Shown here: positions 9,213 to 58,625 of the stretch, in pieces | Numbering within the stretch: the first letter of the stretch is position 1 | Layout of the letters: each line of letters begins with the position of its first letter | Origin: a phage | DNA length: 64,000 nt | NCBI GenBank assembly: GCA_025823825.1 | Contig: GCA_025823825.1_4720.1 | Reading direction: 5' to 3' (one strand) | Made by a program: the position numbers and the translations under genes | Notes under the pieces: model-generated | The model's input: only the letters and a program-made list of their open reading frames with translations | Told to the model about the DNA's origin: nothing | The model's database searches: none

Positions 9213-9237
9213 TCACCTAAGTAATATAGCCGTGAAA
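9213..9237 (-). promoter_or_regulatory. promoter-like motif, copy 1 (TATATTAC core)
   Basis: Minus-strand reading TTTCACGGCTATATTACTTAGGTGA, about 25 nt upstream of the ATG at 9189; near-identical to the copies at 21.76 kb and 58.6 kb. Confidence 0.55.
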
Positions 9238-9339
9238 AATGTTGGATTAAGTTAAATACTGCAACCGTAACTGATTTTATGGGCTTTTAGCCTAAACCAA
9301 TCATCTTCGGAATCATCATCTTTGAAACAGGAATCTATC

Positions 9340-10161
9340 ATGGAAAAAGTATTTGTTTGTAAGTTGTTTACCAACGGCAATAGCCAACCAATGTATCTGA
9401 CCGATCCTGTTCTAGGTAATCGGAACAGTACCGTATTCAAAGAAGCTTTCGAATACGCTAAAAATAAAGCCGTGAGAACACTGACGTCTGATGACTGTAT
9501 CAACGGTATCACGTGGGCAGAGTTATTCGGTGATGCTGTTAGACACTTCGTTCAGGACGCAAGAAAACAGGAAATCAGTCTCACGACTATCGTTGTGCGC
9601 GAAAACGCAGAAATTTTATCAAACGTTTTGGTTGATTTTAATGACGTTTGCGTGTTTAATCCAGAGAACACGTTTGAACAATATCTTACTGCCCTGAACA
9701 ACCAGCTCGGTAAAGATATTCATCCCGAATTCGCCAAGTTAACGTATCAAGTGCTTTTTAACGACGTCGATCCAAACACAAAGATCAACACCAGCTTATC
9801 GCCCCTGGTAAAGAAATACGGATCGGTTCTTGCTACGGCAACACCCACCACCGATGGCGGTTACGATATCGAATTGGATGGTCCATTAAAAGAACAAGAG
9901 CCTACTGGGGTTCGGGCGGTACATCACAACCTCGTCGTTAAATCTGATGGATGCGATGAACATTACGCTATGATGAACGATGAAAACAATTACCGTTTAA
10001 GTCAAGCGATTGGTGTTCTACGCTATACCGAACCCACTGTTGTAGACGATTATACATCGACAACAACACACACCACATGTTTCATTTTCATCTACCCCAA
10101 TGAAAGTGTGTACATTACTGACTGCTACGGCAACACTGTAGATAGCTTACGTCGTTACTAA
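9340..10161 (+). CDS. hypothetical protein (273 aa)
   Basis: Track ORF 9322..10161 trimmed to the first ATG (MEKVFV...); followed by a terminator. Confidence 0.6.
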   Translation: MEKVFVCKLFTNGNSQPMYLTDPVLGNRNSTVFKEAFEYAKNKAVRTLTSDDCINGITWAELFGDAVRHFVQDARKQEISLTTIVVRENAEILSNVLVDFNDVCVFNPENTFEQYLTALNNQLGKDIHPEFAKLTYQVLFNDVDPNTKINTSLSPLVKKYGSVLATATPTTDGGYDIELDGPLKEQEPTGVRAVHHNLVVKSDGCDEHYAMMNDENNYRLSQAIGVLRYTEPTVVDDYTSTTTHTTCFIFIYPNESVYITDCYGNTVDSLRRY

Positions 10162-10167
10162 TCGTCG

Positions 10168-10194
10168 AGCCTGTCCTTCGGGGCAGGCTTTTAT
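10168..10194 (+). terminator. intrinsic terminator
   Basis: AGCCTGTCC-TTCG-GGGCAGGCT followed by TTTTAT, directly after the stop at 10161. Confidence 0.7.
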
Positions 10195-10269
10195 GCTGTT
10201 AAATATCAGGAATAAGAATTAACAAAATAGGAAAATGGTGTGTATATAACACAAAGGAGGGAGATGATT

Positions 10270-10386
10270 ATGTTACTCATTCTAATGGAGAGAGCATTGC
10301 TGGCGGGTATCTGCGCATTCTCTGTTAAACACGCTGTTGCTATCATGGCTGAAGAAAGGCGTAATACGCATAATGTATTACGCTGA
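10270..10386 (+). CDS. small hydrophobic protein (38 aa), below the ORF-track size cut-off
   Basis: AAGGAGG 8 nt upstream of ATG; translation MLLILMERALLAGICAFSVKHAVAIMAEERRNTHNVLR. Confidence 0.4.
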   Translation: MLLILMERALLAGICAFSVKHAVAIMAEERRNTHNVLR

Positions 10387-10495
10387 AAACACTGTGTGCA
10401 TTAGTGTATGACGAGAAATCGTCGAGGCCCCCGTCTTCACGAGGGCCAACACCTATGCATGATTATCCATCGTCTGTTAAACAAAGGTTATAAAT

Positions 10496-10804
10496 ATGAG
10501 CAATTTGAACGTTGAATTTACTTCAACAACGCCTGTCATGAATGGTGTTGGCACTGAAACCAAAATCGTATTAGAACCCATTCCAGGGTTACGTGATCTC
10601 GGTGATTTTTATCAACTGATGCCGCGTATACGGAAGGCCTTAAACAGCATCGATCTTGATTCCAATAAAGATTTCCAACACGATACAGAAAATACTGATC
10701 ATGTATTGCTACCATCGGGGATCGCAAAATTCACCTACACGCAAACATTGAAAGCCTCCGATGGTGAAATCCGTCGTTTTATCGTTGAAGTAGAAAGCGC
10801 ATAA
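10496..10804 (+). CDS. hypothetical protein (102 aa)
   Basis: Track ORF, followed by a conserved hairpin. Confidence 0.55.
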   Translation: MSNLNVEFTSTTPVMNGVGTETKIVLEPIPGLRDLGDFYQLMPRIRKALNSIDLDSNKDFQHDTENTDHVLLPSGIAKFTYTQTLKASDGEIRRFIVEVESA

Positions 10805-10808
10805 AAAC

Positions 10809-11503: not shown

Positions 11504-12727
11504 CTACTTCGTTTTCGCCGTTATCGGCTGCGATACTGTAATCTCGACACGATTTTCATCGGTACGTTTAACGATGATAAGGTTGCGTTCATCACCGAAC
11601 GGTTCTGAGATCTTACAAGCCTCTTTAAGATTTTCGAGAATCTTGCCATGGGGTTCAAACACCGCAAAACCGGAACTAGCGTCTATTCTTATTAGACTTA
11701 CACGCGTGCCGTTTACGGTAATAACATCTTCCGTCTTGAATTCACAACAGGAGGGTAGACGGAACTGGCCGGGAATACCGGCTACGTATGCCTCACCACC
11801 GAACATTTCTATTAATGTCACCGGTTTGAATGTTTTCTCTGGGAAAGCATTATTGAGGATATCGTTTCCATTCACAAACCAGATCGTTACTTTATCTTCA
11901 GAATACGCTAGTCGGTACGGTTGGGTTGCGGACGCTTGCGCTTTATGCTGGTTAAATAACTTTGATTTTGTCGCAATCACGGCACGACCTTCGGCGTCGA
12001 AGTACAGAACTTCATATCCAACACATCCGATAAACACGCGACGGTTATTAAGTTCCGGAATTCTGACTACTAACGCATTACCATCTTCCGTCGGTGTAAT
12101 ACCACGTAGGATGATAGATTCATTGTTCAATGTTGAGTTGCTCACGATGACGCTTCGCATTACCGCTGGCGACACTATTTTATCTGCTGCAGGTTCAAGT
12201 TGCTCCGCTGTTACAGTCATGGATCTGTCTTCGTTTTCAACTGGCCGGTTGAAAAGGATTGTTTTATTAAGACAAACAATTGGGGTAATTTCGCCGATAC
12301 TCCGTATCTTGACTGAGGGGCAATTGCACACATACGGAACAAAAACATCAATATCGTTGGTCGCTTCTTCAAGCATGCTAGCATACGCCATTGCTTCGGG
12401 ACGATCGGTGAGATGAATAACAGCATAGACGATATCGTCTTTTAACCACGCACGTTTCACTCGTCCTATAACACGATTGATGTCTACAATAACTCTCTGA
12501 GCTTTCATCTCCCATTTTACTGCATCAGTACCACCCGCAACCACGTTTGGTTTATCCGTGTTTACACGATGAAGGAAACTATTGATTATTTCCTCATTGA
12601 TCTGGATATCCTTTCTCGCAAAATTCAACAACGGAATAACGAACTCATTGTTACCGCACTTCTCTGCTCCGCGAATGATAGGAGTACACTTCTTGTTCTC
12701 ATCTGATCCCCAGATAACTTTAGTCAT
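11504..12727 (-). CDS. hypothetical protein (407 aa) in recombination cluster
   Basis: Track ORF between tmk and the RuvC-like gene; no calcineurin-type phosphoesterase or other motif recognised. Confidence 0.6.
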   Translation of the reverse strand: MTKVIWGSDENKKCTPIIRGAEKCGNNEFVIPLLNFARKDIQINEEIINSFLHRVNTDKPNVVAGGTDAVKWEMKAQRVIVDINRVIGRVKRAWLKDDIVYAVIHLTDRPEAMAYASMLEEATNDIDVFVPYVCNCPSVKIRSIGEITPIVCLNKTILFNRPVENEDRSMTVTAEQLEPAADKIVSPAVMRSVIVSNSTLNNESIILRGITPTEDGNALVVRIPELNNRRVFIGCVGYEVLYFDAEGRAVIATKSKLFNQHKAQASATQPYRLAYSEDKVTIWFVNGNDILNNAFPEKTFKPVTLIEMFGGEAYVAGIPGQFRLPSCCEFKTEDVITVNGTRVSLIRIDASSGFAVFEPHGKILENLKEACKISEPFGDERNLIIVKRTDENRVEITVSQPITAKTK

Positions 12728-12760
12728 TTTCTGTTTCCTTCTTGGGTTTTGTACATGTTG

Positions 12761-14205: not shown

Positions 14206-16662
14206 TTAAATAATCGTGACGTGTTCGTTATATGTTTCAGGGAGAATGATGTTCGTTTTATCAAGAACCATACACTCGGCTTTACGGAATGATGCATGGT
14301 TGATCACGTAGTGACTGATGAACCACACCTGGCTTACGCGGTGACCATCAACCAGACGACGAACAAAATCCATGGCATTAGATTGGTGCTGCGGATCAAA
14401 TGTTGATGCGAATTCATCTAACATCAACGGATAATCCGTAAACCCCTTGTAATGCATCATCGCGATGATGAACGCGATATTGATAATTTCCTTTTGTCCC
14501 TTACTCCCATAAACAATATCTTTTCGCGGTGTCGGATACTTCTCAGTTAAAAGCGGAAAACGATAGTTCAATCCTTGCGCGTCGATAGCACACGGGAGTA
14601 TCTGAAGTTGGTATTCCCAAATACTCGCAATGATACCATTCATGTATTCGACGAACGCGTTGATGGGACCCGCAATTGTTTCGGCAATCAGTCCGTTGGA
14701 TGGACTCAACTCATCCAGAACAAGTTGTGCGTAACTGAGCTGTTCTTCCACCTCTTTTTGTGTCGTTTCCAACTGAGCCAGAAGCTGCTGGTCGGTTTTA
14801 GCTTCCTGTAGTTGCTGTTCGACATGACTTATTCGGCGAACTGTATCAGACATCGCAGCACGTAACGATTTCGTGTAGAGGTGTTGCAGATACTCTAACC
14901 ACAGTTGCGTTAACGCTTTATCGCTGTTATCAGAACGCACCTGATCTTCCATAACCGCCGTAATGGTTTCCAATCTACCTTCCGTAGCTGTGATGGCTTG
15001 TGTTAACCGCTCAACGGTTGTTAACAACTCTGTCCTGTTCTTATAAAGCAATTCTCGACGTTGCTGTAACGGTTCAACATCAACCGCTTGTACCCGTTCG
15101 AGCATGCCTTGAAGATGCTTCCGTTCCTGTTCGGCTTGTGTGTAACGCGCAAGTTTCTCAAACGCAAGCAACCAATCGTTAATGATGCCAATGCTGCGGA
15201 ATCCTAAACCGTTTTTGCGGCCTTCTTCCAGCAGATTATCCCACATGGGTTTAATAGCGTAATAATCTTTCGTCCAACGTGTTAACTGACGATGTTGTTC
15301 CATCCAAAGCGTATAGCGCTGCACCTTCTCACTAAGCTCAGCTAACGATTTCTCCTGTTCTTCAACCCAGGCATGGCCCTTCTGAATACGTTGTTCAATA
15401 CCCGCTTTGCTGGTCTTTTCTGTCTCACCAACATGAAAGCGATAATTGCATTTTGGACAGCTGGTCTGGGGTTGATGGTTAAGGTGGTCGAGATGCGCTT
15501 CCAAATCGGCTAACGCATGTTTCGCGTTACGCAAACGCATTCTTGCCGCCTCTTCCTCCTTGATGTAAGCTTCAGCATCGTAAACATGATAGGTGTTGTC
15601 GGTATCAATCCATTCTTGGAGTAATTCCGTTAACGGAGCCTGAACTTGCGTGAGCTGTTGTAAACAAACCGCAGCGTCCAGATTCATCGTTAAAAGCTCG
15701 CCTGGATGATCTTGCTGAAGTTGTTCGTCCAAACGTGCGAGGCGGGCTTTAATCTGATCGATATCACCTTCACCAGACTGTTTCAACTGGTCAAGGATAT
15801 TATCGATACCCAACAGCTCGTCAACCTGACTTTCGAGTTTCGCATTCGCATTCGCGAGTTGCTCTCTTAGTTCAGCCAGATTCTGCTGTTCTTGTTGCGA
15901 TGTTCCTCCTTGGTAACGAACAACCGCATGAAGAAGCTCGCGATTAAAATGATGAGCACGTTGTGCGGATTCCAGAAGCTGTCGTTGATCAACATCACTA
16001 TCGAATAACGGCAATCCCATCATCGCTTCGAGCGCTGAGCGTTGCTGCTTTAACTCCGCTTCCAATCCCTGGTGGTCGGTTCCGGTGTATTTCGCTTCAA
16101 TGCGCTGTGATGTTTCAACCAACTTATTCAATGTATGCTCATTCACCGCTTTCAGTGAACGTACTTGTTGCTTAACAACCTGAAACAACTCGAGCGCATA
16201 ATCGACGTTAACCGGGCATATCTGCGTTAATCGTTCGCGACGTTTCATCGGTCCCATTTCGGTGAACTGGTAAGCTGTTTCGTAACCTAACAACAAACGA
16301 ATGGTGTCGTCATTAAGTTCGAAATGTTCTTCGATCAGTTTCCACTGGGCCGGTTGTGTGCCACCACCATTCAGGTTCTCGCTATCGTTAACGTAGAACT
16401 CATGCTTAAACCCTTTTTCTAAACGACTGATAAGACGGTATTGCTTATTACGGTGTTCGCAGCGGTACTCGTAATACCCGTCTTTATCAAAATCGGCACG
16501 CTCAGGAACGGTCGGATACAGCAAAGGCAATAGACTACTCTTACCCGAACCATTACTGCCTAAAATGAGTTGTACGGGATTATCTGGCCGGATGACCAGC
16601 TCCCGAATCATCCCGGTATCAAAACGATTGAATCCACGTAAGTGGAGATAGGTGCATCGCAT
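14206..16662 (-). CDS. Rad50/SbcC-like ATPase with zinc hook
   Basis: Walker A LILGSNGSGKSS; long central coiled coil with CPKC hook at mid-length; C-terminal signature-like GSKGQKE, Walker B LMLDEF and H-loop FISHY. Start set to the ATG at 16662 (MRCTYLHLRGF, AAGGA upstream). Confidence 0.85.
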   Translation of the reverse strand: MRCTYLHLRGFNRFDTGMIRELVIRPDNPVQLILGSNGSGKSSLLPLLYPTVPERADFDKDGYYEYRCEHRNKQYRLISRLEKGFKHEFYVNDSENLNGGGTQPAQWKLIEEHFELNDDTIRLLLGYETAYQFTEMGPMKRRERLTQICPVNVDYALELFQVVKQQVRSLKAVNEHTLNKLVETSQRIEAKYTGTDHQGLEAELKQQRSALEAMMGLPLFDSDVDQRQLLESAQRAHHFNRELLHAVVRYQGGTSQQEQQNLAELREQLANANAKLESQVDELLGIDNILDQLKQSGEGDIDQIKARLARLDEQLQQDHPGELLTMNLDAAVCLQQLTQVQAPLTELLQEWIDTDNTYHVYDAEAYIKEEEAARMRLRNAKHALADLEAHLDHLNHQPQTSCPKCNYRFHVGETEKTSKAGIEQRIQKGHAWVEEQEKSLAELSEKVQRYTLWMEQHRQLTRWTKDYYAIKPMWDNLLEEGRKNGLGFRSIGIINDWLLAFEKLARYTQAEQERKHLQGMLERVQAVDVEPLQQRRELLYKNRTELLTTVERLTQAITATEGRLETITAVMEDQVRSDNSDKALTQLWLEYLQHLYTKSLRAAMSDTVRRISHVEQQLQEAKTDQQLLAQLETTQKEVEEQLSYAQLVLDELSPSNGLIAETIAGPINAFVEYMNGIIASIWEYQLQILPCAIDAQGLNYRFPLLTEKYPTPRKDIVYGSKGQKEIINIAFIIAMMHYKGFTDYPLMLDEFASTFDPQHQSNAMDFVRRLVDGHRVSQVWFISHYVINHASFRKAECMVLDKTNIILPETYNEHVTII

Positions 16663-17938: not shown

Positions 17939-18328
17939 TTAACGCGTTGCATTCTGGATGATTTCTTTTCCGATCTTAACCAAAGCGGGTATCTGTACAG
18001 CGGTTGCGCCTCGATGACGAAACGCGGTCGTTAACGCGGTATCGATACTCACCGCACGTCCGTGAAGACGATCGAAATAGACTTGAGTGATTGCAGCAGC
18101 ATAATCCTTTCGCTGTTTCTTGGTTTGGTTCAACAGCGTCGCACTATGACTAACGATGAAGTAAGCGATTAAGAAGAACGCCGCTGAACGCGAACCGGGT
18201 AGAAAACCTTGTCGCTTAGGAAGCATCTCACAATCGCGAACAGAATTATCGTTCGCGAGCTCTTCCATGTCAACACAGCATAATTTTGCATAGGTGTGGA
18301 GATAGTGGGTAAAAGTTGAATTTAACAT
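17939..18328 (-). CDS. hypothetical protein (129 aa)
   Basis: Track ORF; GAGGA Shine-Dalgarno. Confidence 0.55.
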   Translation of the reverse strand: MLNSTFTHYLHTYAKLCCVDMEELANDNSVRDCEMLPKRQGFLPGSRSAAFFLIAYFIVSHSATLLNQTKKQRKDYAAAITQVYFDRLHGRAVSIDTALTTAFRHRGATAVQIPALVKIGKEIIQNATR

Positions 18329-18433
18329 TTTCTTTCCTCGATTGCCATGAGTTCAATGTATAGCTTAAACGTCACAGAACGACGTATAACGGTTTGTTTT
18401 AATTTCTAAGGGGTTTCCTTATCTACGATTGAA

Positions 18434-18796
18434 TTAAAGCGTTCTGAAGAGTTCTGTAGCGTTCTCGTCACGTAGACAGGCTTCGTTCAACAATTCAGCT
18501 AACAGCTTCGACCGAACTTCAACAAATGTCCTGAGGCGATGCTCCCATTCTAAACGGATAGTGTACGTATTATCCAGGTTTTTGTAATCAACGACAGATG
18601 TAGAACAACGGGCTTCGCGTTTGTTCACAGCACTCCAAACATCACGGATAACCGTCACGCCTTTCTTGGTACACGTAAACGTTAAAATAAAGCGATTATT
18701 CGCTGCTTCTTCACGGACATGACTAAATTCACTTCGTAACGATGAGACTTTGATCAGTCGGTCAATAGCTAACGATAAACCGATACGTTGTTGCAT
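18434..18796 (-). CDS. hypothetical protein (120 aa)
   Basis: Track ORF in the operon behind the promoter-like motif at 21.76 kb. Confidence 0.5.
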   Translation of the reverse strand: MQQRIGLSLAIDRLIKVSSLRSEFSHVREEAANNRFILTFTCTKKGVTVIRDVWSAVNKREARCSTSVVDYKNLDNTYTIRLEWEHRLRTFVEVRSKLLAELLNEACLRDENATELFRTL

Positions 18797-18797
18797 A

Positions 18798-19223
18798 TCA
18801 AATTCCTTCTTTCAAAATCTCATTAAGACCGTCAGTAATCCAGTCGAACTTCGTCTTAATCATGGCTGGGTTCAATCCATATACTTCCCACACAAGCTGG
18901 GGTTTATGTGTTCCATCGTCCAAACAAAGCACATCGATTGAGAGTACCATACCACCCGTCAATTTCATGTTCTCGCAACTACGAAGATATGCGGATTCTA
19001 GCAATACTTTCCCTAACGCAGTGCAAGCAAATGTTAACCGGGAAGAGTACAGGTACGATGACGTTTTACAGTAGGTTGCTGATATCGGTTGAATATGTTT
19101 GCGGAGTTTGGCGTCTTCACGTAAAAGCAATAACGTGTGATGTAACCGCGTATGCTCGGTAACCGATGAGCTATACTCACCGATACACTCTTCGGCGACT
19201 GATTTAGGCCATTTAATTTGCAT
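18798..19223 (-). CDS. hypothetical protein (141 aa)
   Basis: Track ORF, adjacent to the stop of the upstream gene. Confidence 0.5.
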   Translation of the reverse strand: MQIKWPKSVAEECIGEYSSSVTEHTRLHHTLLLLREDAKLRKHIQPISATYCKTSSYLYSSRLTFACTALGKVLLESAYLRSCENMKLTGGMVLSIDVLCLDDGTHKPQLVWEVYGLNPAMIKTKFDWITDGLNEILKEGI

Positions 19224-19238
19224 GTTCGATTCCCCTTA

Positions 19239-19682
19239 TTAGCAGTACGTGTCGTTCAACACGCGACTCACGTCTAAATGTTCTAGTTGATGTATAATGC
19301 CATCAGCAATGCGTTGTAGATAGGCTGTCTTATCCAATACCGAATCCGATGAAATCGCCCAGTAGGCTTCTGATACCCGATATTCGCTACCTTCACCGAG
19401 ACTGACCTGATTAACCAGCTTCACATCAGCGTATCTCGTCCCACGTTCAGCGTACCAGTAGATGTTTTCCAGTACGTCCTTTCCCGTTTGTGAAAACACA
19501 AACCAAAGCTTCACGTCTAAGCCGGATACTTCGACATCAACGCAGCGAAGATGATTCTCCAAAGGCGCAAAAGAGGCTAAACGTTCCAGCGCGTTTTGCA
19601 GCGTGGGGTGATTAAGCTTTTCTAGATCTTTAGCGGGTTGTTTAGATGATAGCGCGATCGATTTACAGAATTTGGTTTCCAC
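19239..19682 (-). CDS. hypothetical protein (147 aa), GTG start
   Basis: Track ORF; GTG start with AGAGGAA 7 nt upstream. Confidence 0.5.
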   Translation of the reverse strand: METKFCKSIALSSKQPAKDLEKLNHPTLQNALERLASFAPLENHLRCVDVEVSGLDVKLWFVFSQTGKDVLENIYWYAERGTRYADVKLVNQVSLGEGSEYRVSEAYWAISSDSVLDKTAYLQRIADGIIHQLEHLDVSRVLNDTYC

Positions 19683-19712
19683 GGTAGGTTCCTCTTGATA
19701 GATGGTAGTAAC

Positions 19713-19732
19713 GGGGATACCGCGGTATCCCC
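19713..19732. promoter_or_regulatory. perfect 20-nt palindrome GGGGATACCGCGGTATCCCC
   Basis: Lies about 30 nt upstream of the start of 19239..19682; the half-site GGGATACC recurs at 33.06 kb. Confidence 0.5.
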
Positions 19733-19790
19733 TAAGTCTTTATAACACATTCCAAGCCATATTGGATACAGGCTCGTTACGTTCGATGAA

Positions 19791-20192
19791 TCACATCAGT
19801 TGTTCTTTAAGTTGGGTTAACTTATTCGCAACGATGGTCTCAACATCGATGATCTTGTTCATGTTGTCGAGGGTATCCTGCCAGATGAAAATATCCACAG
19901 AACGGGTTCCGGCTAACCCGTTCTCAGGACGATGGTCGCGGGTCACGTAGCGTGGTCTCTGCGGGCAGGTTTGTAACTCGATCCAAAGCGCATCTAACGG
20001 ACCACGGTCCGTGACACCTAAGGCGAAGAATTCACCTCGTACGACCAGAACATCATCAGCCGTCCTGACACGGGTTGATCCTTCGTACACCAATTCCATC
20101 TTTGCTCGGCAGGCTGGGTTCTCGTTCCACGCCTGGACGGCATCGGCAAGGGCTATTGACGTTGCGGTGGTGTTCGTTTGATCATGTTGCAT
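19791..20192 (-). CDS. hypothetical protein (133 aa)
   Basis: Track ORF. Confidence 0.5.
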   Translation of the reverse strand: MQHDQTNTTATSIALADAVQAWNENPACRAKMELVYEGSTRVRTADDVLVVRGEFFALGVTDRGPLDALWIELQTCPQRPRYVTRDHRPENGLAGTRSVDIFIWQDTLDNMNKIIDVETIVANKLTQLKEQLM

Positions 20193-20269
20193 TCTAAGCT
20201 CCTGTAACGCTCTCTAAGCGTCGTTTTAAGTTAAGGTATAGTTTCCCTTCTTTGGATTCGTTTATTGCG

Positions 20270-20545
20270 TTATACGGCTTTTCTGTGCGCGTAGAACGCC
20301 TTCGTTCCGTTGTTGATTGCTTCAACCACATCCCGGGTTAACACAACGGCGTTATCGCTTCGAGACGACGGTGCGTAATACCCTTCACCGTTCTCGGTAA
20401 TCAGGCGATAACGGACTAAGCCTATGCTCGGTTCAACACGTAGCACCTTTTCAAGTTTGTATTTGATGATCTTCGTCAGGCTGACTGTGTCTGACGCGTA
20501 GATTGCTTTATAAACCTTGTTCTTTGCTGTCGGTTTCATCAACAT
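20270..20545 (-). CDS. hypothetical protein (91 aa)
   Basis: Track ORF. Confidence 0.45.
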   Translation of the reverse strand: MLMKPTAKNKVYKAIYASDTVSLTKIIKYKLEKVLRVEPSIGLVRYRLITENGEGYYAPSSRSDNAVVLTRDVVEAINNGTKAFYAHRKAV

Positions 20546-20585
20546 GATTTCTGTTGTACTTTCCTTTTCGCTTGTTGGTGTTGGA

Positions 20586-20885
20586 TTAAGGTTTAGGTTC
20601 CGTTTTGTGTTGTGTGAGTAGTGTGTTGATCTGCTCCCGTTGTTCTTTTAAGTATGCGGGAAGCTGGTCTTCCCATACCGTTCCGATTTCCAACGTGATG
20701 TACCAGCGTTGTTCGGAAGCCAGCCATTGAAAACCGCTCTGTAAACGAAGGATGCTAGGATCACGTACCTTGCTTGCGCTGTAACGGTTGAACCAATCCA
20801 GGTATTCTGCTTTCCCTTCATCGTCGGCAACGTAACGCTGCACGCTGTTCTTCCCTTTGTTCTCGTATCCCGTTGCACGTATCAT
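20586..20885 (-). CDS. hypothetical protein (about 100 aa)
   Basis: Track ORF 20586..20939; the internal ATG at 20885 gives an ATGA overlap with the upstream stop; start choice is uncertain. Confidence 0.45.
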   Translation of the reverse strand: MIRATGYENKGKNSVQRYVADDEGKAEYLDWFNRYSASKVRDPSILRLQSGFQWLASEQRWYITLEIGTVWEDQLPAYLKEQREQINTLLTQHKTEPKP

Positions 20886-43850: not shown

Positions 43851-43869
43851 ACGGTTTCCTTATCAACTA

Positions 43870-43891
43870 GGGTATTGCAAATACAATACCC
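43870..43891. promoter_or_regulatory. palindrome GGGTATTG-CAAATA-CAATACCC
   Basis: 8-bp perfect stem between genes, about 30 nt upstream of the start at 43850. Confidence 0.4.
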
Positions 43892-43911
43892 ACCGTCGGA
43901 CGATAAGTTAA

Positions 43912-46470: not shown

Positions 46471-46504
46471 TTCTTACGATCCTTTTTATTTATTCGGTTA
46501 TGTG

Positions 46505-48301
46505 TCAATCGATTATGTCACGATCGTTAATTTCTACAATTTCTTCATCGAATCGACCGACGTCTTTCTTCAATCCTGCATTGGTTGCTGCAACGTCATT
46601 TGCAATTTGTGGGGTAATGATTAACCGACCACGTTCGTCGATAGGTGCGTACATACTGAACTTCTGACGTCCGGTTGGTTCGGAGTGTGGAAGATTCAGA
46701 TAGCTTGCACAGAACGGGATGGAACCACTAACCAAACGACTCTCGTCAGCCAATGCAGCACCGCCTGCGTTTTGGCTCTGGAGAACAACATGCGTGCTCA
46801 CTTTGAACAGCATGCAATCACCAGGTGACTGAATCGATGTTGCCACTTTCTCACGTTTATCACGATTGCTCTGGATATTGAGAATCGCTTCCGTTGCAAC
46901 TTGATTTCGCAACGCCTTCTGTACATCGCGATTGGTCATCTCTTTACGGTTGTTCTGTCGTTTACCACGTTCTGTGGTTTTAAGATGGAACCCCAGTTTA
47001 AAGATGCTCTTACGCACATCCTCCATGACATATTCCAACACCATCAATTCCTTACCGAACATCGTCGTGGTATCAACACGACTCATTTCGATAGTGACAT
47101 TGTCAATCAGATACGCCATAAATTCGTAGAAGTCGTCGCAAGGAATATTTTCCTGTTTGAACTTCTTCTGCTGAATCTCGTCAACGTAAAGATCGAGACT
47201 GTCGATGTGGTGGTTTACATCACGCAACAAACGTGCATCCGCGTTGTTGTTATTAAAGATAATCAAACCGAGTAATGTACGCCAATGGTCTGGCGCATTC
47301 GCGAACTCCTCAACCGGATAGTCTTCCGGAAAACGATCGTAATAACGGTCGATGAGATACAAGAATGCACCGACAAGGCCAAGAACAATACGTTCCGTGC
47401 CTCCACGTCTTACAGCAATTTGAATATCAGGATGTTTGTAACGTACAGCGCTAGCGCTACGGCTTTTACCGCTTTTGCTGATACTAAAACCTTTAGGAAT
47501 AACCCCCATGGTGCGATAGATTACCCATTGGTCACGCGGAAAATCACGTTCAGCAAGGTTCCGTCCGGTTACGGCTTCGACACCTGCAAAACGTCGGAAA
47601 CACTCACCCACACCGTACTTCGCAAAGAGATAGTGACCCAGTGTGGTTACGCTGGTGTGGTTGATGTTGTCACCGTTCACTTTACTTTGTTTGGTAAGAT
47701 GATAGATTTGTGACCAGGGTAATGACAGGTAATGACGATAATCGATACCGGTCGGTGTATCATTGCTCAGGAACTGATACGGCGTACGTTTAACCGTGAT
47801 TTTATCACGCGGAAGCATGATGAACGCCATGTCTTTCGTGTAACTGATTACGGGGTCAGCGAGTACCGCACTGAGAATGAAGTTCGCACCACGTAGACGC
47901 ATTTTACCACCCTGACCTACCGCGGGTAATAGGAGAGGATGTCGGATAATGCAGTAGTCCTTTCCTGGTTCACGACGGTCACCTGATTCCATCGCGCCGT
48001 ACCAGCGGAATTCCAGCATCACCATAAACACATCGGAAGGCGCAAGGTCGAAGGTCAGCTTACCGCTATCCTTCCCTTTGGTTTTCTTTCCTCCGCTTAA
48101 GTAGTGGAACTGTTCGCGGGCCATACAACGACGCAGGCCATGATACACCAGATCCTTAGGTAAACTATCTTTGCTGTTCCGCCAAAGACGATCAACATAG
48201 GACTCAACATCTTGCATCTTATCGACGACGATGTTGCGTGCTATCTTCTCGTTCATCTTCGGTGCAAGCTCAGCGACAGCTTTGCAGAATCTAGGATCCA
48301 T
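46505..48301 (-). CDS. hypothetical protein (598 aa)
   Basis: Track ORF starts at GTG 48304; the ATG at 48301 has AAGGAG 6 nt upstream. Confidence 0.6.
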   Translation of the reverse strand: MDPRFCKAVAELAPKMNEKIARNIVVDKMQDVESYVDRLWRNSKDSLPKDLVYHGLRRCMAREQFHYLSGGKKTKGKDSGKLTFDLAPSDVFMVMLEFRWYGAMESGDRREPGKDYCIIRHPLLLPAVGQGGKMRLRGANFILSAVLADPVISYTKDMAFIMLPRDKITVKRTPYQFLSNDTPTGIDYRHYLSLPWSQIYHLTKQSKVNGDNINHTSVTTLGHYLFAKYGVGECFRRFAGVEAVTGRNLAERDFPRDQWVIYRTMGVIPKGFSISKSGKSRSASAVRYKHPDIQIAVRRGGTERIVLGLVGAFLYLIDRYYDRFPEDYPVEEFANAPDHWRTLLGLIIFNNNNADARLLRDVNHHIDSLDLYVDEIQQKKFKQENIPCDDFYEFMAYLIDNVTIEMSRVDTTTMFGKELMVLEYVMEDVRKSIFKLGFHLKTTERGKRQNNRKEMTNRDVQKALRNQVATEAILNIQSNRDKREKVATSIQSPGDCMLFKVSTHVVLQSQNAGGAALADESRLVSGSIPFCASYLNLPHSEPTGRQKFSMYAPIDERGRLIITPQIANDVAATNAGLKKDVGRFDEEIVEINDRDIID

Positions 48302-48340
48302 CACACACTCCTTTCAGAAAGTTGCTTAAGCAGATTAAAG

Positions 48341-49777
48341 TTACTTTTTCGATGACGCCTTCTCAAGAATCTTGAAAAAGGTCATACCTATACCGACAAC
48401 AGCCGCGGTTATGCTTGCAGCGGCTTTCCAAACATCGACGTTACGTTGACGTCGCGCTTCTTCCGCTTCACGTTGTCTTTTTGCCTCTTCATCACGTCGA
48501 CGTATCTCAGCAGCAAACTCGTCGTGCTTACGTTTGGATTCTTCGTCTCGACGACGAAGTTCAGCGACGAATTCTTCATGTTTGCGTTTAGCCTCGTCAT
48601 CACGACGTTTTAAATCAGCTTGATAATCTTCATGTATTTGTCTACGTAGATCATCTTGACGTTTCATTTCGGCTTGGTGTTGTTCCATCCTACGTTTTTG
48701 TTCGTCTTTAAGCTGATCGAGTTCGGCTTTATGTTGTTCATCACGCAGCTTTGCATCAGCGCGATGCGCCTCATGCATCTGTGCGATAACTGCCTTGTGT
48801 TCATCCGCCATACGTCGCATTTCAGCCATCACCCCTTTAAGGGTTTCTTCTGATGCCTTACGTTCGTAGCTACGCTGGTCGAAATCATTTTTGTAGGCTT
48901 CTTTTTGGATGGGGTCGCGCCAATGCAATGCCGACTCACGTGTCGGAAAAACATTGTACTTCCACATCTCTTTTTCCAAATCTTCGACCGGTACGAAGAT
49001 GGAGTCATTATTCCCGAAGGTAACCAACATACCTGGCGCGCCTGCTCCATTCGTTGGTTTTATTTCGAACGCTTTCCCCAACACGTTAACCCATAAGCTA
49101 TACGGATTATGAAAGTCGGGCGGCGTCCAATGGATAGTGAGTTGTGTTCCGAGAATCCGGAAACCCTCTGTTTTTCCCGTCAAGCTCCGCGCGCACGTTG
49201 CGATGTAGGGGTGATCAATCCCTTTCGTAACGTGGTCTGCGCTTTTGTATTCTCCTTTAACTTTTACGATTGCCACGTTGATTTGCGCGACATAAGCAGG
49301 TTGATTAAAGTTCAACGTGTTGAGGTCAATTTGACATATTTCATCCAGCGTATCGTACCAGTCTTGCTGGTCTAATAGACGCGGCATTTTCTCTGTGTTA
49401 ACAATACGACGGATATGCGGTTTCCTTATCGCATAACCTGTGCCGTTTTTAACACGGAGTATATCCCGACGTCTACCCGCGTAGACGAAGTTTCTGAATG
49501 CACCATTCGCATTAGATACGTCATGGCTGTCAACTATTACAGGACTACGAAATTTTGAACGTCGTACGATCCTGAATGTATTGCCGTCCTCAACCCTACC
49601 AGGAATGTACTGGAACATATTGTCGGAGGTGATAACCAACACGGTATGGCCAGATTCGTTAATACATGCCCATCCTAATTCCAGGTCATATAACGGTTCA
49701 GCATAACCGTCAATGCGATAAGCGTGCGTACCATCCCACGGTTCGAACGCGGTATCACATATTGGCATGGAGGGCAT
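48341..49777 (-). CDS. tail-anchored protein with long Glu/Arg/Lys-rich helix (478 aa)
   Basis: ATG at 49777 with GGAGG 6 nt upstream; about 120 aa of ...RRDEEAKRKHEEFVAELRRRDEESKRKHDEF...; then a C-terminal hydrophobic segment AAASITAAVVGIGMTFF. Confidence 0.6.
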   Translation of the reverse strand: MPSMPICDTAFEPWDGTHAYRIDGYAEPLYDLELGWACINESGHTVLVITSDNMFQYIPGRVEDGNTFRIVRRSKFRSPVIVDSHDVSNANGAFRNFVYAGRRRDILRVKNGTGYAIRKPHIRRIVNTEKMPRLLDQQDWYDTLDEICQIDLNTLNFNQPAYVAQINVAIVKVKGEYKSADHVTKGIDHPYIATCARSLTGKTEGFRILGTQLTIHWTPPDFHNPYSLWVNVLGKAFEIKPTNGAGAPGMLVTFGNNDSIFVPVEDLEKEMWKYNVFPTRESALHWRDPIQKEAYKNDFDQRSYERKASEETLKGVMAEMRRMADEHKAVIAQMHEAHRADAKLRDEQHKAELDQLKDEQKRRMEQHQAEMKRQDDLRRQIHEDYQADLKRRDDEAKRKHEEFVAELRRRDEESKRKHDEFAAEIRRRDEEAKRQREAEEARRQRNVDVWKAAASITAAVVGIGMTFFKILEKASSKK

Positions 49778-49927: not shown

Positions 49928-49952
49928 TCACCTAGGTAATGTAAGCGTCAAA
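49928..49952 (-). promoter_or_regulatory. degenerate copy of the promoter-like motif
   Basis: Minus-strand reading TTTGACGCTTACATTACCTAGGTGA matches the consensus at 19 of 25 positions, about 150 nt upstream of the start of 48341..49777. Confidence 0.35.
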
Positions 49953-49986
49953 TTTTTTCTATTCGCAACGATAAACGGCATAGAAA

Positions 49987-50016
49987 CCTCCCCCAACCCT
50001 TACGGGCTGAGGGAGG
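49987..50016. terminator. conserved CCTCC/GGAGG hairpin element (family member 7)
   Basis: CCTCCCCC-AACCC-TTACGGGCTGA-GGGAGG, downstream of the 740-aa gene; on the minus strand it is followed by TTTCTATGCCGTTTATCG. Confidence 0.55.
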
Positions 50017-50115
50017 CTGACTTATGTATCACGGTGCCGGATGAATGTCCGGTGCAATGAAACCATCCGCAACGTTGTCGTCAAGAATATCATCCAACGA
50101 AGCAGCTACGGTAGT

Positions 50116-54758: not shown

Positions 54759-54781
54759 ACACAAAAAAAGATTGTACGGTT

Positions 54782-54813
54782 CCCTCCTCCAACCCGTAAG
54801 GGAAGGAGGAGGG
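54782..54813. terminator. conserved CCTCC/GGAGG hairpin element (family member 8)
   Basis: CCCTCCTCC-AACCC-GTAA-GGGAA-GGAGGAGGG between convergent genes; T7 run on the minus strand; GGGGTTATG on the 3' flank. Confidence 0.65.
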
Positions 54814-54829
54814 GTTATGACCGCTTTGA

Positions 54830-55156
54830 TTAACTTATTGTCGTGAATTCATTAGGTGAAAATTTCCAGCCGTTCTCAGTGAGAAGCGTGTTGAGTTTCG
54901 CTGCAACGATAAGCCATGCATGCATGGCCGTTACATCGTATTGGCGATTCACTCGACGTTGGTTTTCGATATTGATTTGCTCCTGTTCGGTGATGTTTGG
55001 ATAAAGTGCGATAGCGCTAGGTTTACCCAGCGCGCTAGTCATCACCGCCGTACATTCACTGATAATGTTGTTTAAGTGGTAGTTATACACCGTTCCACGC
55101 ATGACGCGATGACGGCATTCGATAATAGCGTCGTAAATGATTTCTCGAGTAATCAT
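54830..55156 (-). CDS. hypothetical protein (108 aa)
   Basis: Track ORF; last gene of the operon behind the promoter-like motif at 58.6 kb. Confidence 0.5.
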   Translation of the reverse strand: MITREIIYDAIIECRHRVMRGTVYNYHLNNIISECTAVMTSALGKPSAIALYPNITEQEQINIENQRRVNRQYDVTAMHAWLIVAAKLNTLLTENGWKFSPNEFTTIS

Positions 55157-55162
55157 GATAAT

Positions 55163-55564
55163 TTAAAACATACGGTCGTTTTTAGCACGGGCGTCCATTA
55201 CCAGATCGTAGATGCCTGCGGTTCGTAAGCACTCTTCGTAGTAACGATGTGTGCCTTCCTCAGCCATCCACGATAACCCTCGGCTATCCGCAACGATAAC
55301 CAGTTTGTTATTGTTGAACGCACACACCACACGGTAGGTCGCGTTGTTATTCGGATCGCGAGTGATAAGTTCGTAAACGCCGTTAACAGGTTTACTGAAT
55401 TCACCGTTTAACGGGATGAGTTCGGTAGTACCTTCAGCAAACGTTACGTTGATCGGTGATGGATCTTTGGCGATAACAGTATATTCCACATTGTGTTCTT
55501 TACTGGTCATGATACCGAAGTAAGAACTGACAGGGGAACGCGGTACACTAAGAATATTAAACAT
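55163..55564 (-). CDS. hypothetical protein (133 aa)
   Basis: Track ORF. Confidence 0.5.
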   Translation of the reverse strand: MFNILSVPRSPVSSYFGIMTSKEHNVEYTVIAKDPSPINVTFAEGTTELIPLNGEFSKPVNGVYELITRDPNNNATYRVVCAFNNNKLVIVADSRGLSWMAEEGTHRYYEECLRTAGIYDLVMDARAKNDRMF

Positions 55565-55633
55565 AAATGTTGTCCTCTTAATTGGATTTAGATTGTTGGG
55601 TATGTGATTGGAAATGAAAACGTTGTTTCGGTT

Positions 55634-56203
55634 TTAGACGATGAGCGACCAGGTGGTAAGCACCCCGCTTGCGAATTCGAGCTTAAGACGTTTACCGATA
55701 AGTTGTTGTTGGATCATCTTCTCGGTGATGCGTCGATCTTGCTGAACCGCTTTATCAAACGCTTCTTTTGCTTCAGCTTGGTAGAAGTTCGTTTCTTCGT
55801 TTTCGTCGATCTCTTCGAGCGTATCCTCGTCGATGTCGGCAAGTTTCACTCGACCGTTTTCATCAGGTTGTTCTGCAGGTTCATTGTCATACGGCGTGTC
55901 TTTTGTTGGTGCGACACGATGTTGCAACTCGACCTGTGTTAACATGATCTCCATCTCACCATCGATAGGAATGATTTCATCGGCGCTGCCGTTTTCGGTT
56001 AGCTCTCGACTTTCCAGTAATGTCGTGGTAACAGAGAACACCTCTTCAACAGGAACCTCGTCATCGTCGATGGTGTTAACCGTGTTGCTGGTAACTTCGG
56101 CAACGACCATCAAATCAAATGCGTGAGGGTCACCTGGCATTTTGATGCCTGGAAGTTTGTTGAGGTACCAAGGATCAAGAATCATGATTTCTGGATTAAA
56201 CAT
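55634..56203 (-). CDS. highly acidic protein (189 aa)
   Basis: Runs of Asp/Glu: DDDEVPVEEV, DNEPAEQPDENG, DIDEDTLEEIDENEETN. Confidence 0.55.
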   Translation of the reverse strand: MFNPEIMILDPWYLNKLPGIKMPGDPHAFDLMVVAEVTSNTVNTIDDDEVPVEEVFSVTTTLLESRELTENGSADEIIPIDGEMEIMLTQVELQHRVAPTKDTPYDNEPAEQPDENGRVKLADIDEDTLEEIDENEETNFYQAEAKEAFDKAVQQDRRITEKMIQQQLIGKRLKLEFASGVLTTWSLIV

Positions 56204-56272
56204 CGTATTTTACCTTTCTATGTTAGGTGGATTGCGGATAGAAGAATCAATGCATAGGTTGATCGTTCTTTG

Positions 56273-56719
56273 TTAGAAATTATTGCCGAACTGGTTATGG
56301 TTATATGGTTGGTAGTGTCCGTAATTACCTGGGAAGCCACCATACGGCACAGGCTCCGGTTTAGGGATTTCCATGGTCGGATTTTTGGAATTGATTGCCA
56401 TCACGTAAATTGTTACGGGTGATACCGCGCGATTCATTTCGACGGCCACACGACGGATGTAGCCAACGTATGCTGTTATTGCAGGCATTAGCTTGTCCCC
56501 TTCGGTAGTTATAACGGTACCATCAGAAAGAATCTCGCGAACCGCGCACCATTTACCAAGATGAACGCCTTGCTGCGGCTTTATTCCAGTAGCGATAGAG
56601 AGATAGGTATCGTACGTCGTTTGATGATTCGGATGGCTATAGATAGATTCTGCTTTGGTTTCGTCTTTTCCTAAGTATTCGCCTTGCATGGGGGTAGGAG
56701 TTGATGAAGAATGTGGCAT
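56273..56719 (-). CDS. paralog-family protein, short member (148 aa)
   Basis: Shares HP..TTYD.YL.I, W..VREI..DGT and LAIDSKNP/MAINSKNP with the next two genes. Confidence 0.6.
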   Translation of the reverse strand: MPHSSSTPTPMQGEYLGKDETKAESIYSHPNHQTTYDTYLSIATGIKPQQGVHLGKWCAVREILSDGTVITTEGDKLMPAITAYVGYIRRVAVEMNRAVSPVTIYVMAINSKNPTMEIPKPEPVPYGGFPGNYGHYQPYNHNQFGNNF

Positions 56720-56830
56720 GTTCGATTCTCCTTCGAGTTGTTTGATCGATTGTTCAACTGGTACTGATTACGATTGGTTGATAACAGTAGAGCTACCGCT
56801 TAAAAACTCTACCGTTGTTTAGATACCGTA

Positions 56831-57691
56831 TTAGGATATACGGTGCATCGTCGGTGCGATTGGTCGTTGACCAAGGTAGAATGTATATCTCGGACGATTC
56901 TTCGGTGCCTGGTTTGGTTGAGGATTCTTCGAATCGATAGCTAACACATAGTACTGAAGTGTGGGGTTGAGTGTCGTCAGATAGTTTCTGATGAACTCCT
57001 TGTTTAAACTTTCAGTCGGGGTTAATACATGTCCGTTGATTGTAACGACGGTGCCGTCGGAACGTATTTCACGAACAATGCACCAGGCCCCCGCACCAAC
57101 ATCGGTAGGGATAGTCGTGCTGGGTGTGATGGTTAGATATTTATCGAAGAATTCGCAGCAAAGAGGATGCTTATAGACCGTTACGGTATCATCTCCTGGC
57201 GAGGTTCTCTCTTTTGTTACAAGATCCATTGCTGGTACGAAAGTGTTGATTTTGGCAACCTTATCGGCATCTTCGTTCGCTTCGATATAAATCTCTGCTT
57301 TACCGTACACGCTCTGAACTAAACGACGTAACTGTTCGTATGTTTTCGGTGAGGTTAGCTGCACCCGACTGAGCAGTTCATCGTACCAAGCTTCGAAGGT
57401 GCTTGTTGGTATCTTAACGTATGCCTTATTCCCGGTTTCATTTTCATCCCGGAAGATAATCGCAACGGTATCAGGCTCGTCAAGAGAGTCCAGGTAAACG
57501 ATGTGCTCGACCAACGCAGAAAATGTCTTACGTCCAATTCCCCCATAGTACGGGATTGCTGAATGAACCAGCCGCCAGTTACATGAAGTTTGGATATGAT
57601 CGAAGGCGTTGATCATGTTTTTACTATAACGAAAAATTTCAGTAAAATATTCTTTACGTTCTTTACTAAGACGTTTGTATATCTTGGTCAT
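56831..57691 (-). CDS. paralog-family protein (286 aa)
   Basis: C-terminal domain ...YKHPLCCEFFDKYLTITPS...WCIVREIRSDGTVVT...YVLAIDSKNP; N-terminus MTKIYKRL parallels MTDIYQKL in 57745..58545. Confidence 0.6.
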   Translation of the reverse strand: MTKIYKRLSKERKEYFTEIFRYSKNMINAFDHIQTSCNWRLVHSAIPYYGGIGRKTFSALVEHIVYLDSLDEPDTVAIIFRDENETGNKAYVKIPTSTFEAWYDELLSRVQLTSPKTYEQLRRLVQSVYGKAEIYIEANEDADKVAKINTFVPAMDLVTKERTSPGDDTVTVYKHPLCCEFFDKYLTITPSTTIPTDVGAGAWCIVREIRSDGTVVTINGHVLTPTESLNKEFIRNYLTTLNPTLQYYVLAIDSKNPQPNQAPKNRPRYTFYLGQRPIAPTMHRIS

Positions 57692-57744
57692 TTTTGTAGC
57701 TCCTCGATTAAAGTAAAGATGAACGCGATCATTTATTATCGCTT

Positions 57745-58545
57745 TTAGTTTTTACCATTCCCCCAGCTAGGTTCTTCGTAGAAATGATGCGGATAACCAG
57801 AGTAGGAACCCATGACACAAGAGGCCGTTTCTTTTCGTGAATCGATGACCAGCGCATAAAACTGTCTGAGGTTCGACAACATAGAGAAATAAGACGACAG
57901 CACTTTTTCGTTTAACGCATCGCACGGTAAGCAGGTGCGACCGCAAAACGTCACAATACGGCCATCAGGATAGATCTCACGAATCATTCGCCATTCACCG
58001 ATGTCGACCGGCGACGGTGTAGATGTACCGCCCGTTATTGTTAAATATCGGTCGTACGTAGTACGGCATTCAGGATGAACGTAAATCGGTTGGGCATCAA
58101 TACTATCGTTTTCTGTTTGATCTTTACTCACGTATACCTCAAGGTAGATTGTTGGTAACCCGGTTAGAACGCCAGTATCACGACGTTTTTTGGTAATCCG
58201 GGGACGGATATTATCGAGCACGCCTTCCAGTTTTTCTGCGACTTCGTCAGCCGGTAATATATACCCGTATGTTGGTTCTGGGTCATCATCGTGGCTAAAT
58301 AAGATACGACAGTCGTTTTTATTAAATTCTATATCTTCAGGTGGGAAGATGATGACGCGAACCGTATGGCGTTCTGCGATATAAAATCCTTCAGGCCCCT
58401 CAGTTTTGGTAAGTGTAAAGGACCAGGATGAATGATCTTCAAGTGACGTGCCTGCCAGGAAAAAGTCCGCCCGAATTGGTGCGTTCCATTTCGCGATCAT
58501 ATTGGCGTGACCAATAACGCCTAATTTTTGATAAATATCTGTCAT
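57745..58545 (-). CDS. paralog-family protein (266 aa), first gene of the operon
   Basis: C-terminal domain ...YVHPECRTTYDRYLTITGG...WRMIREIYPDGRIVT...YALVIDSRKE; the promoter-like motif lies about 60 nt upstream. Confidence 0.6.
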   Translation of the reverse strand: MTDIYQKLGVIGHANMIAKWNAPIRADFFLAGTSLEDHSSWSFTLTKTEGPEGFYIAERHTVRVIIFPPEDIEFNKNDCRILFSHDDDPEPTYGYILPADEVAEKLEGVLDNIRPRITKKRRDTGVLTGLPTIYLEVYVSKDQTENDSIDAQPIYVHPECRTTYDRYLTITGGTSTPSPVDIGEWRMIREIYPDGRIVTFCGRTCLPCDALNEKVLSSYFSMLSNLRQFYALVIDSRKETASCVMGSYSGYPHHFYEEPSWGNGKN

Positions 58546-58600
58546 GATTGTATCCTCGGTTATTAAGAGAAATTTACAGTGATAACAGTAACCGTTGTCA

Positions 58601-58625
58601 TCACCTTAGTAATATAGCCATGAAA
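58601..58625 (-). promoter_or_regulatory. promoter-like motif, copy 3 (TATATTAC core)
   Basis: Minus-strand reading TTTCATGGCTATATTACTAAGGTGA; differs from copy 1 at 2 of 25 positions. Confidence 0.55.

Follow-up and report, generated by a model that had tools for sequence, protein, structure and literature searches.

In a review of jumbo phages that encode an RNA polymerase (RNAP), every one is described as having an AT-rich motif of a common kind upstream of its early operons (PMC7598289). The early promoters of phiKZ depend on the virion RNA polymerase (vRNAP), according to Ceyssens 2014 as cited in two later papers (PMC8244752 and PMC7598289), and have a T-rich motif upstream of -19 (PMC8244752); early-promoter consensus sequences have been published for N1M2, OBP, 201phi2-1, EL, and phiKZ (PMC7058600, Table 2). 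Goslar, a nucleus-forming jumbo phage of the Chimalliviridae, is the Escherichia coli model for nucleus-forming phages; RNA-targeting knock-down tools are available for it, and five vRNAP subunits have been detected in its virions (10.64898/2026.04.21.720040). Here, we report a 25-bp motif that heads four minus-strand operons in a 64,000-nucleotide (nt) stretch of phage DNA (GenBank assembly GCA_025823825.1, contig GCA_025823825.1_4720.1; "the window" below means this whole stretch) and that very probably serves as an early promoter.

A 4-kb probe from the window was 97.7% identical to Escherichia phage vB_EcoM_Goslar (MK327938, 237,307 bp), and Goslar 230,590 to 237,306 followed by 1 to 55,116 was the collinear counterpart of the whole window (92 to 98% identity). 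From these alignments, we assign the window to a Goslar-like chimallivirus, an E. coli jumbo phage. Three copies of the motif had been noted in a preliminary description of the window, and its minus-strand coordinates were exact: site A at 9237 to 9213 (TTTCACGGCTATATTACTTAGGTGA, with the core TATATTAC at 9228 to 9221), site B at 21771 to 21747 (TTTCACGGCTATATTACCTTCATGA), and site D at 58625 to 58601 (TTTCATGGCTATATTACTAAGGTGA). Counted from the 3′ end of the 25-mer to the first start codon, the gaps were 23 nt (ATG at 9189), 82 nt (ATG at 21664), and 55 nt (ATG at 58545), in keeping with the 25 to 100 nt first given. A fourth copy, site C, was also correctly located at 49952 to 49928 (TTTGACGCTTACATTACCTAGGTGA, preceded by an A6 tract, with the ATG at 49777 lying 150 nt downstream), but it had been called degenerate, and if that meant marginal it did not hold: its core-matrix score (25.7) equaled those of the other sites, and the large genes of the operon behind it include one for a subunit of the non-virion RNA polymerase (nvRNAP).

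All four sites were intergenic and directed at minus-strand genes. The core was TATATTAC at three of them and TACATTAC at one, TTTCAYG adjoined it upstream, and an A-tract or AT-rich flank preceded TTTCAYG. At site A, the transcription start is predicted within or adjoining GTGA (9216 to 9213). At three mismatches or fewer, the 17-mer TTTCAYGGCTATATTAC matched the window four times (0.21 expected), a number reached in 0 of 100 shuffles; the 8-mer core TATATTAC alone matched six times (2.35 expected; 5 of 100 shuffles reached six), which is not significant, so the signal resides in the extended motif. Weight matrices built from Goslar copies recovered precisely the four sites, and nothing more, on both strands of the window. 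A look-alike with three mismatches at 8262 to 8278 on the minus strand (TTGCATGAGTATATTAC) was rejected as a promoter because it lies inside a coding region (7904 to 8437), has no downstream GTGA, and scored below threshold in both matrix scans.

The complete Goslar record was scanned as well, as the preliminary description had proposed for the full genome. Twelve clear copies were found with up to six mismatches to the 25-mer; a 17-nt core matrix (YTAYATTACYTNNNTGA) added a 13th at 187,648, whose upstream half diverges, and also picked up a weak candidate at 151,643. All 13 copies lay on the minus strand, and each preceded genes on that strand. Of five shuffled Goslar genomes, only one produced a match to the full 35-position matrix at a threshold of 8, a single match scoring 13.6, against 35 to 50 for true copies. 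At a threshold of 12, the 17-nt core matrix gave 1 to 8 matches per shuffled genome (scores not recorded), and the 13 true copies scored 20.8 to 27.2. The consensus was an A/T-rich tract, TTTCAYGRC, TAYATTAC, YTNN, and (G)TGA, with core columns that were unchanging in the 12 training copies except for Y12. By their upstream flanks (12 to 16 nt in common), the Goslar copies grouped into sub-families. In the literature searched, we found no paper on the Goslar motif or on a tie between the motif and blocks of RNA sequencing signal.

Published transcriptomes of Goslar allowed the motif to be set against expression. Knock-down of chimallin arrests Goslar at the early vesicle stage, with vRNAP present in the vesicle, and the authors attributed vesicle-stage transcription to vRNAP; the arrested 30-min transcriptome resembled the wild type at 5 to 20 min (r > 0.93) (Armbruster et al., bioRxiv 10.1101/2023.09.20.558163). 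Per-gene read counts were taken from Sup. Table 2 of that paper, where the RefSeq locus tags agree with GenBank numbering as far as 186 and are in reverse order beyond it; genes were mapped by row order, checked against chimallin (gp246) and the capsid gene. Arrest lowered 103 Goslar genes more than 4-fold, which agrees with the 146 unchanged genes of 249 in the paper. The genes that did not drop formed nine contiguous blocks, and one of the 13 sites stood at the 5′ end of every block (9/9; P = 8e-14); the remaining 4 of the 13 sites fell within long early blocks. In the Goslar data, the motif was thus found upstream of, and co-oriented with, genes transcribed at the vesicle stage.

Four of the nine blocks (gp4-1, gp21-14, gp40-37, and gp47-44) belonged to orthologues of the window's sites, with log2 ratios near +1 against -3 to -7 (an 8- to 100-fold drop) for the gene across the site. 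The orthologue of site A (Goslar 2576) was the 5′ edge of the block gp4 to gp1, with a log2 fold change of +1.2 versus -6.7 for gp5; that of site B (Goslar 15076) opened gp21 to gp14 (about +1 versus -4.8 for gp22); site C was identical to Goslar 43275, which opened gp40 to gp37 (about +1 versus -4.1 for gp41, the major capsid gene); and the orthologue of site D (Goslar 49741) opened gp47 to gp44 (about +1 versus -3.2 for gp48). Among the internal sites, the ratio rose by about 0.9 to 1.6 log2 units to about +1 at gp105, gp175, and chimallin gp189, with a small rise at gp182 (from +0.98 for gp183 to +1.26). The plus-strand genes of the window, which have no site, were all of the late class, as were all Goslar vRNAP subunit genes; early-block genes annotated as RNAP beta/beta′-like (gp165, gp171, and gp188) also lay downstream of sites. 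Read counts in the arrested infection dropped about 3-fold past gp4, consistent with partial termination.

The preliminary description had proposed that the operons behind the motif are the first to be expressed. Their Goslar orthologues are still transcribed at the vesicle stage, so they are not genes expressed only late, and the proposal stands to that extent; for the first three genes of operon D, early expression is a prediction, because these genes are absent from Goslar. As an observation apart, the two core-only variants of Goslar at 187,648 and 151,643 (GGAGATTAAAATAAACCTACATTACCTTCCTGA and GGAGATATATTAACACCTACATAACCTAAGGGA) have the upstream GGAGAT in common and are without TTTCA. The 187,648 variant starts an early block at gp210, and the 151,643 variant precedes gp165 (annotated as RNAP beta-like); the two may be a distinct promoter sub-class.

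The motif was also compared across phages. Chimallin upstream regions of five genera were retrieved and aligned on the core, reading gaaaaaaaTTTGAGATT-TATATTAC-TAAATTGA in phiKZ (72 nt from core end to ATG), gaaaaaaaTTTCAGGGT-TATATTAC-CTAGGTGA in Goslar (72 nt), caaaaaaaTTACAAGTC-TATATTAC-GTATGTGT in RAY (69 nt), ccaaaaaTTTACATCCC-TATATTAC-TAAGGTGT in Proteus phage 10 (62 nt), and gtaaaTTTACATAAACG-TATATTAC-TTAGGTGA in KpHz_2 (129 nt). The layout of A-tract, TTTNA, TATATTAC, and GTG was common to all five. For PHIKZ054, experimental mapping has shown a primary start site that goes with the early motif (PMC8244752). That TATATTAC is the core of the phiKZ early promoters, as the preliminary description proposed, agrees with three sources (PMC7058600 Table 2, PMC7598289, and PMC8244752), and the comparison it recommended with published promoters of the phiKZ family gave a nearly position-by-position fit of the window motif to the consensus sequences of PMC7058600, downstream GTG included.

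Closer relatives carried the motif in the same place. Four Goslar-like contigs (240 to 250 kb), whose gp21-family protein is 43 to 80% identical to the window's, had one strong site each in 20.8 kb, on the gene's strand and 100 to 140 nt before its start codon. These sites varied only at R8, Y12, and three spacer positions; the 5′ untranslated region (5′UTR) of the family was also well conserved, and the footprint therefore extends beyond the motif. A scan of IMG/VR with the exact 17-mer returned only Goslar, two near-identical Goslar-like contigs, and one 42-kb contig, in which the copy has no GTGA and is probably unrelated (L018).

We consider it highly probable that the motif is the early promoter read by the vRNAP carried in the virion of a Goslar-like phage. 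In the mechanism we propose, phage DNA and vRNAP would be injected jointly into a membrane vesicle, where vRNAP would bind a composite promoter made up of an A/T-rich tract (about -30), TTTCAYG (about -20), TAYATTAC (about -10), and (G)TGA at or next to the start. It would then transcribe the downstream minus-strand operons as far as the next hairpin terminator or convergent late gene; of these operons, three would supply small, fast-evolving genes of unassigned function and the fourth a beta-like nvRNAP subunit, and nvRNAP would then assume middle and late transcription. Recognition of the motif by vRNAP itself is something we infer. The exact start nucleotide is likewise a prediction, placed in or next to GTGA because an AT-rich element is described at about -10 (PMC7598289) and because 201phi2-1 promoters are conserved at -2, -9, and -31 (PMC11512511).

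Several points weigh against this assignment. The expression data come from Goslar and not from the window's phage, and they are a ratio of knock-down to control at 30 min, not a time course. The only statement on a start site that we found concerns chmA, for which the displayed sequence begins at -91 (bioRxiv 10.1101/2023.09.20.558163); a motif position of -89 to -65 agrees with this but does not decide the matter, and for direct in vitro binding of vRNAP to the motif we found no report in the literature for any chimallivirus. Between window and Goslar, the motif is no better conserved than its flanks, and site D differs from its Goslar counterpart at 6 of 25 positions, each change being a base found in other copies.

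A different class of phage promoter is the best surviving alternative, though we think it improbable: the motif would belong to nvRNAP, or to a modified vRNAP, and be middle class and not immediate-early. What makes this less likely is that the layout and the chimallin orthology are those of the early class. The succession of A-tract, TTT, and TATATTAC is that of the early consensus, the middle one being centered near -22, and the orthologous phiKZ chimallin promoter is an early primary start site (PMC8244752). The putative middle motif of phiKZ (AAAATTACC) does have ATTACC in common with the core, and the Goslar variants at 187648 and 151643, without the upstream TTTCA half, might be another class. 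Ratio data alone cannot split "early" from "early plus middle," but the arrested profile resembles the wild type at 5 min (bioRxiv 10.1101/2023.09.20.558163), and a subunit of nvRNAP is itself encoded behind one of the sites.

It is quite unlikely that the repeat acts chiefly as a junction for recombination or mobile cassettes, or as the operator of a phage regulator, without being a promoter itself. Such an element would leave unexplained why 9/9 early blocks start at a copy, why the orientation of the copies is always that of the downstream genes, and why they match mapped early promoters of phiKZ and 201phi2-1. It would suit the shift of gene content right at the module (at site D, Goslar homology stops at the first start codon), the different first genes of relatives, and the copy sub-families with 12 to 16 nt of upstream flank in common; a role in recombination is possible as a secondary consequence of the promoter rather than an alternative to it.

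Least probable is a host sigma-70 promoter, with the early genes read by E. coli RNAP as in T4: TATATT is similar to a -10 hexamer, and a weak sigma-70-type match (9 of 12) is present at one site (21784 to 21757), but the geometry excludes it, because the conserved TTTCAY stands 3 nt upstream of TATATT and not 16 to 18 nt, and furthermore three of the four sites are without a -35 partner, sigma-70-like matches were not enriched in the regions (24 versus 27.3 and 13 versus 25.1 expected), a vesicle bearing vRNAP surrounds the injected Goslar DNA (bioRxiv 10.1101/2023.09.20.558163), and phiKZ development is rifampicin-resistant in the literature, where our searches found no rifampicin experiment on Goslar.

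The four operons behind the vRNAP promoter candidates differ in content. Operon A (6763 to 9189, minus strand) has four genes (8533 to 9189, 7904 to 8437, 7479 to 7892, and 6763 to 7482), homologues of Goslar gp4 to gp1 with 82 to 98% amino acid (aa) identity. Operon B (17939 to 21664, minus strand) has eight small genes, homologues of gp21 to gp14, and its 3′ end abuts a convergent plus-strand late gene. Operon D (54830 to 58545, minus strand) has six genes, of which the first three lie at 57745 to 58545, 56831 to 57691, and 56273 to 56719, and the last three are homologues of gp46 to gp44. The description of these three operons as sets of small unknown genes fits the absence of a Pfam or PHROG match above threshold for all 18 proteins (0/18); as an operon, A needs a qualification, in that a hairpin terminator (8526 to 8499, minus strand; -22.7 kcal/mol) stands directly after its first gene. 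An AlphaFold2 model of the first operon B gene product, from an 18-sequence alignment, was too poor for a fold search (mean predicted local distance difference test score [pLDDT], 56; predicted template modeling score [pTM], 0.39), and profile comparison of its paralogue family with that of the first three operon D genes showed no relationship (hhalign probability, 0.1%). A host-takeover or anti-defence role for operons A, B, and D would be a guess.

Operon C (43575 to 49777, minus strand) has four genes, encoding proteins of 478, 598, 852, and 91 aa that are 99 to 100% identical to their Goslar homologues gp40 to gp37. The 598-aa product (46505 to 48301) matched PHIKZ123 over its full length (7OGP chain E; E = 1.2e-40; phmmer against the Protein Data Bank [PDB]) and phrog_2943, "polymerase" (E = 7e-120). 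PHIKZ123 is a beta-like subunit of nvRNAP (PMC7618050), and by homology we identify the 598-aa product as its counterpart. Its place behind site C is as expected from the phiKZ cascade, where the genes for the second enzyme are transcribed by the injected one; no vRNAP gene was found inside the window. Searches of PDB sequences with the 478-aa and 852-aa proteins gave no match, for the 478-aa protein (conceivably the sigma-like fifth subunit) with the phiKZ nvRNAP entries included. Two sub-threshold Pfam matches in operon C were judged to be chance.

Gene content directly behind the promoters was variable. The first three operon D genes (266, 286, and 148 aa) are mutual tandem paralogues (38 to 40% identity over 80 to 100 aa) without a counterpart in Goslar. 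Homology to Goslar stops at the ATGAC of the first gene (window 58541, Goslar 49657) and restarts at 56305, 32 nt ahead of the stop of the third, and Goslar retains a 25-codon remnant (window 56273 to 58545 compared with Goslar 49584 to 49772). The annotated start of Goslar_00047 (49772) is upstream of the promoter (49741 to 49717), and this 62-aa gene call is therefore probably wrong. A Logan contig (L024; ERR10140895) has the same module of hairpin and promoter D with the second paralogue placed directly behind. It also has, at 6168 to 6800, an extra 210-aa gene between its gp48 homologue and that module, absent from the window and from Goslar and without a Pfam match. In operon B, the first and fifth genes are 62% and 64% identical to Goslar (the first being gp21) while their neighbors are 92 to 100% identical, and the counterparts in relatives have 8 to 11 genes, with extra paralogues of the C-terminal domain of the first gene.

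This variability fits accessory, fast-evolving early genes and is the one argument, an indirect one, for a host-takeover or anti-defence role. We tentatively suggest, as a possibility we would ourselves rate as doubtful, that the module of hairpin, early promoter, and 5′UTR also anchors the swapping, duplication, and deletion of accessory early genes in chimalliviruses. The idea is based on the breakpoint at ATGAC behind site D, where three paralogues replace the 25-codon remnant; on the operon of a third relative, which opens with the second paralogue; on the divergence of the first gene behind site B (62% versus 92 to 100%) and the 8 to 11 genes of relatives; and on the flank-sharing sub-families of promoter copies. 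If true, the first positions behind each early promoter would be a predictable hotspot for host-range or counter-defence genes.

Hairpins accompany the operons. A GC-rich hairpin at 58660 to 58691 (minus strand; CCCTCTCCC...GGGAGAGGG, then TTCTATGCTG; -26.6 kcal/mol, z -5.4) is the predicted terminator of the upstream late gene, the gp48 homologue, about 35 nt before promoter D. Another at 49985 to 50018 (minus strand; followed by TTTCTATGCCG; -30.0 kcal/mol, z -6.0) follows the major capsid gene, about 33 nt ahead of promoter C, and a hairpin terminator at 22496 to 22465 (minus strand) follows the gp22 homologue. Together with the one in operon A, these four terminators (8526 to 8499, 22496 to 22465, 50018 to 49985, and 58691 to 58660) range from -22.7 to -30 kcal/mol.

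Such hairpins form a second repeated element: they are GC rich, many with the stem CCCTCYYCC...GGRRGAGGG, and are followed within 0 to 3 nt by T(T)(C)TATGCYGT. The element occurs in the window at 58691 to 58650, 50018 to 49975, the 34429 region, and 22496 to 22450 on the minus strand, and at about 6655 to 6697 and about 54770 to 54820 on the plus strand. TTATGCYGT is also present at 10191, 18283, 60702, and 63963 (5 versus 1.1 expected in the window). Goslar has about 30 copies of the element, and the tail TTTATGCYGT is on nearly all annotated Goslar terminators, whatever the stem sequence. A conserved terminator motif is known for phiKZ and 201phi2-1 (PMC11512511), and the element probably corresponds to it in Goslar. 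Because TATG, which in phiKZ is the late-promoter motif (G being +1), is part of the tail, a combined role as terminator and late promoter is conceivable.

Between the gp22-homologue hairpin and promoter B, about 700 nt (21772 to 22464; Goslar 15077 to 15780) are free of open reading frames and partly very AT rich, the largest non-coding gap among the parts of the window examined; no Rfam family and no tRNA was found there. A ACCTTCCTTGAAAC.CCTCT block about 75 to 100 nt upstream of promoter B was kept in 6/6 aligned Goslar-like sequences. In some Goslar-like phages, a short GC-rich hairpin (GGCGACGCGTAAGCGTTACCT and variants) is inserted just 3′ of several early promoters: in two contigs (L027 and L028) at about 9880 to 9925, in L024 at 6905 to 6935, and in Goslar at about 226,660 to 226,680. 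At site B, it is a 43-nt insertion in two relatives. It could be a stability or regulatory element of the 5′UTR or a small mobile insert.

Further observations concern the window at large. Homology to Goslar was lost in three patches inside genes that are otherwise 95 to 98% identical, namely, the first gene of operon B (21228 to 21576), the gp9 homologue (12208 to 12734), and the gp26 homologue (27759 to 28613; product unannotated), a pattern that suggests mosaic replacement. A run of 15 A's at 6703 to 6717, directly after a hairpin and TTATGCCGT, is the exact begin and end point of the linear Goslar record (about 16 to 17 A's, cut there), whose two ends overlap by about 54 nt when aligned to the window; the run may be a physical terminus or merely where the assembly was opened. 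Rfam and tRNA scans of the window gave no match.

These sites amount to a complete promoter map, open to testing, for the polymerase that Goslar-type phages inject; annotation and vRNAP biochemistry can both draw on it. The map accounts for the way the published early transcriptome falls into blocks, and at least one gene call (Goslar_00047) is corrected by it. It also defines the genes made before a phage nucleus exists, whose products cytoplasmic immune sensors can reach; Avs5, for one, detects an early jumbo-phage protein (PMC12931631). The near-identical layout in phages of Pseudomonas, Erwinia, Proteus, Klebsiella/Serratia, and E. coli is a template for studies of vRNAP recognition in vitro.

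T4-type phages reportedly have PeSL cassettes, in which an early promoter and a stem-loop flank hyperplastic genes, as Arbiol et al. are said to have described in 2010, and the promoters of these cassettes are reportedly of the sigma-70 type. The Goslar modules are alike in that a hairpin and then an early promoter bracket small accessory genes that vary between close relatives; a role for them in recombination is only suggested, by breakpoints at the start codon. AR9 (PBS1-like) follows the same logic, with an over-represented AT-rich motif near -10 that marks the early genes of an injected multisubunit polymerase, but it has another consensus, a uracil-containing genome, and no nucleus, and the likeness is by description only (PMC5312081). 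The 201phi2-1 consensus, TTTRARR-BTATATTACDWHDGTG, and the N1M2 consensus, TTTCARRYAKATATTATYWAAGTGWA, fit the window 25-mer nearly throughout, GTG included (PMC7058600), and 201phi2-1 promoters are conserved at -10, -20, and -30 (PMC11512511); 201phi2-1, OBP, and N1M2 are phages of Pseudomonas or Klebsiella, unlike the window's E. coli Goslarvirus. With phiKZ, the Goslar-type motif has in common an identical TATATTAC core, the upstream T-rich element and A-tract, the placement before early operons, and the orthologous chimallin position, with 72 nt from core to ATG in both. It departs from phiKZ in a more fixed upstream half (TTTCAYGRC), in tolerating TACATTAC, in a strongly conserved (G)TGA 4 to 5 nt past the core (the single phiKZ chmA copy examined reads TTGA), and in copy number (13 in Goslar versus 28 to 32 in phiKZ). 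The motif is in all likelihood the Goslar-type version of the vRNAP early promoter of the phiKZ family, and not conceptually new.

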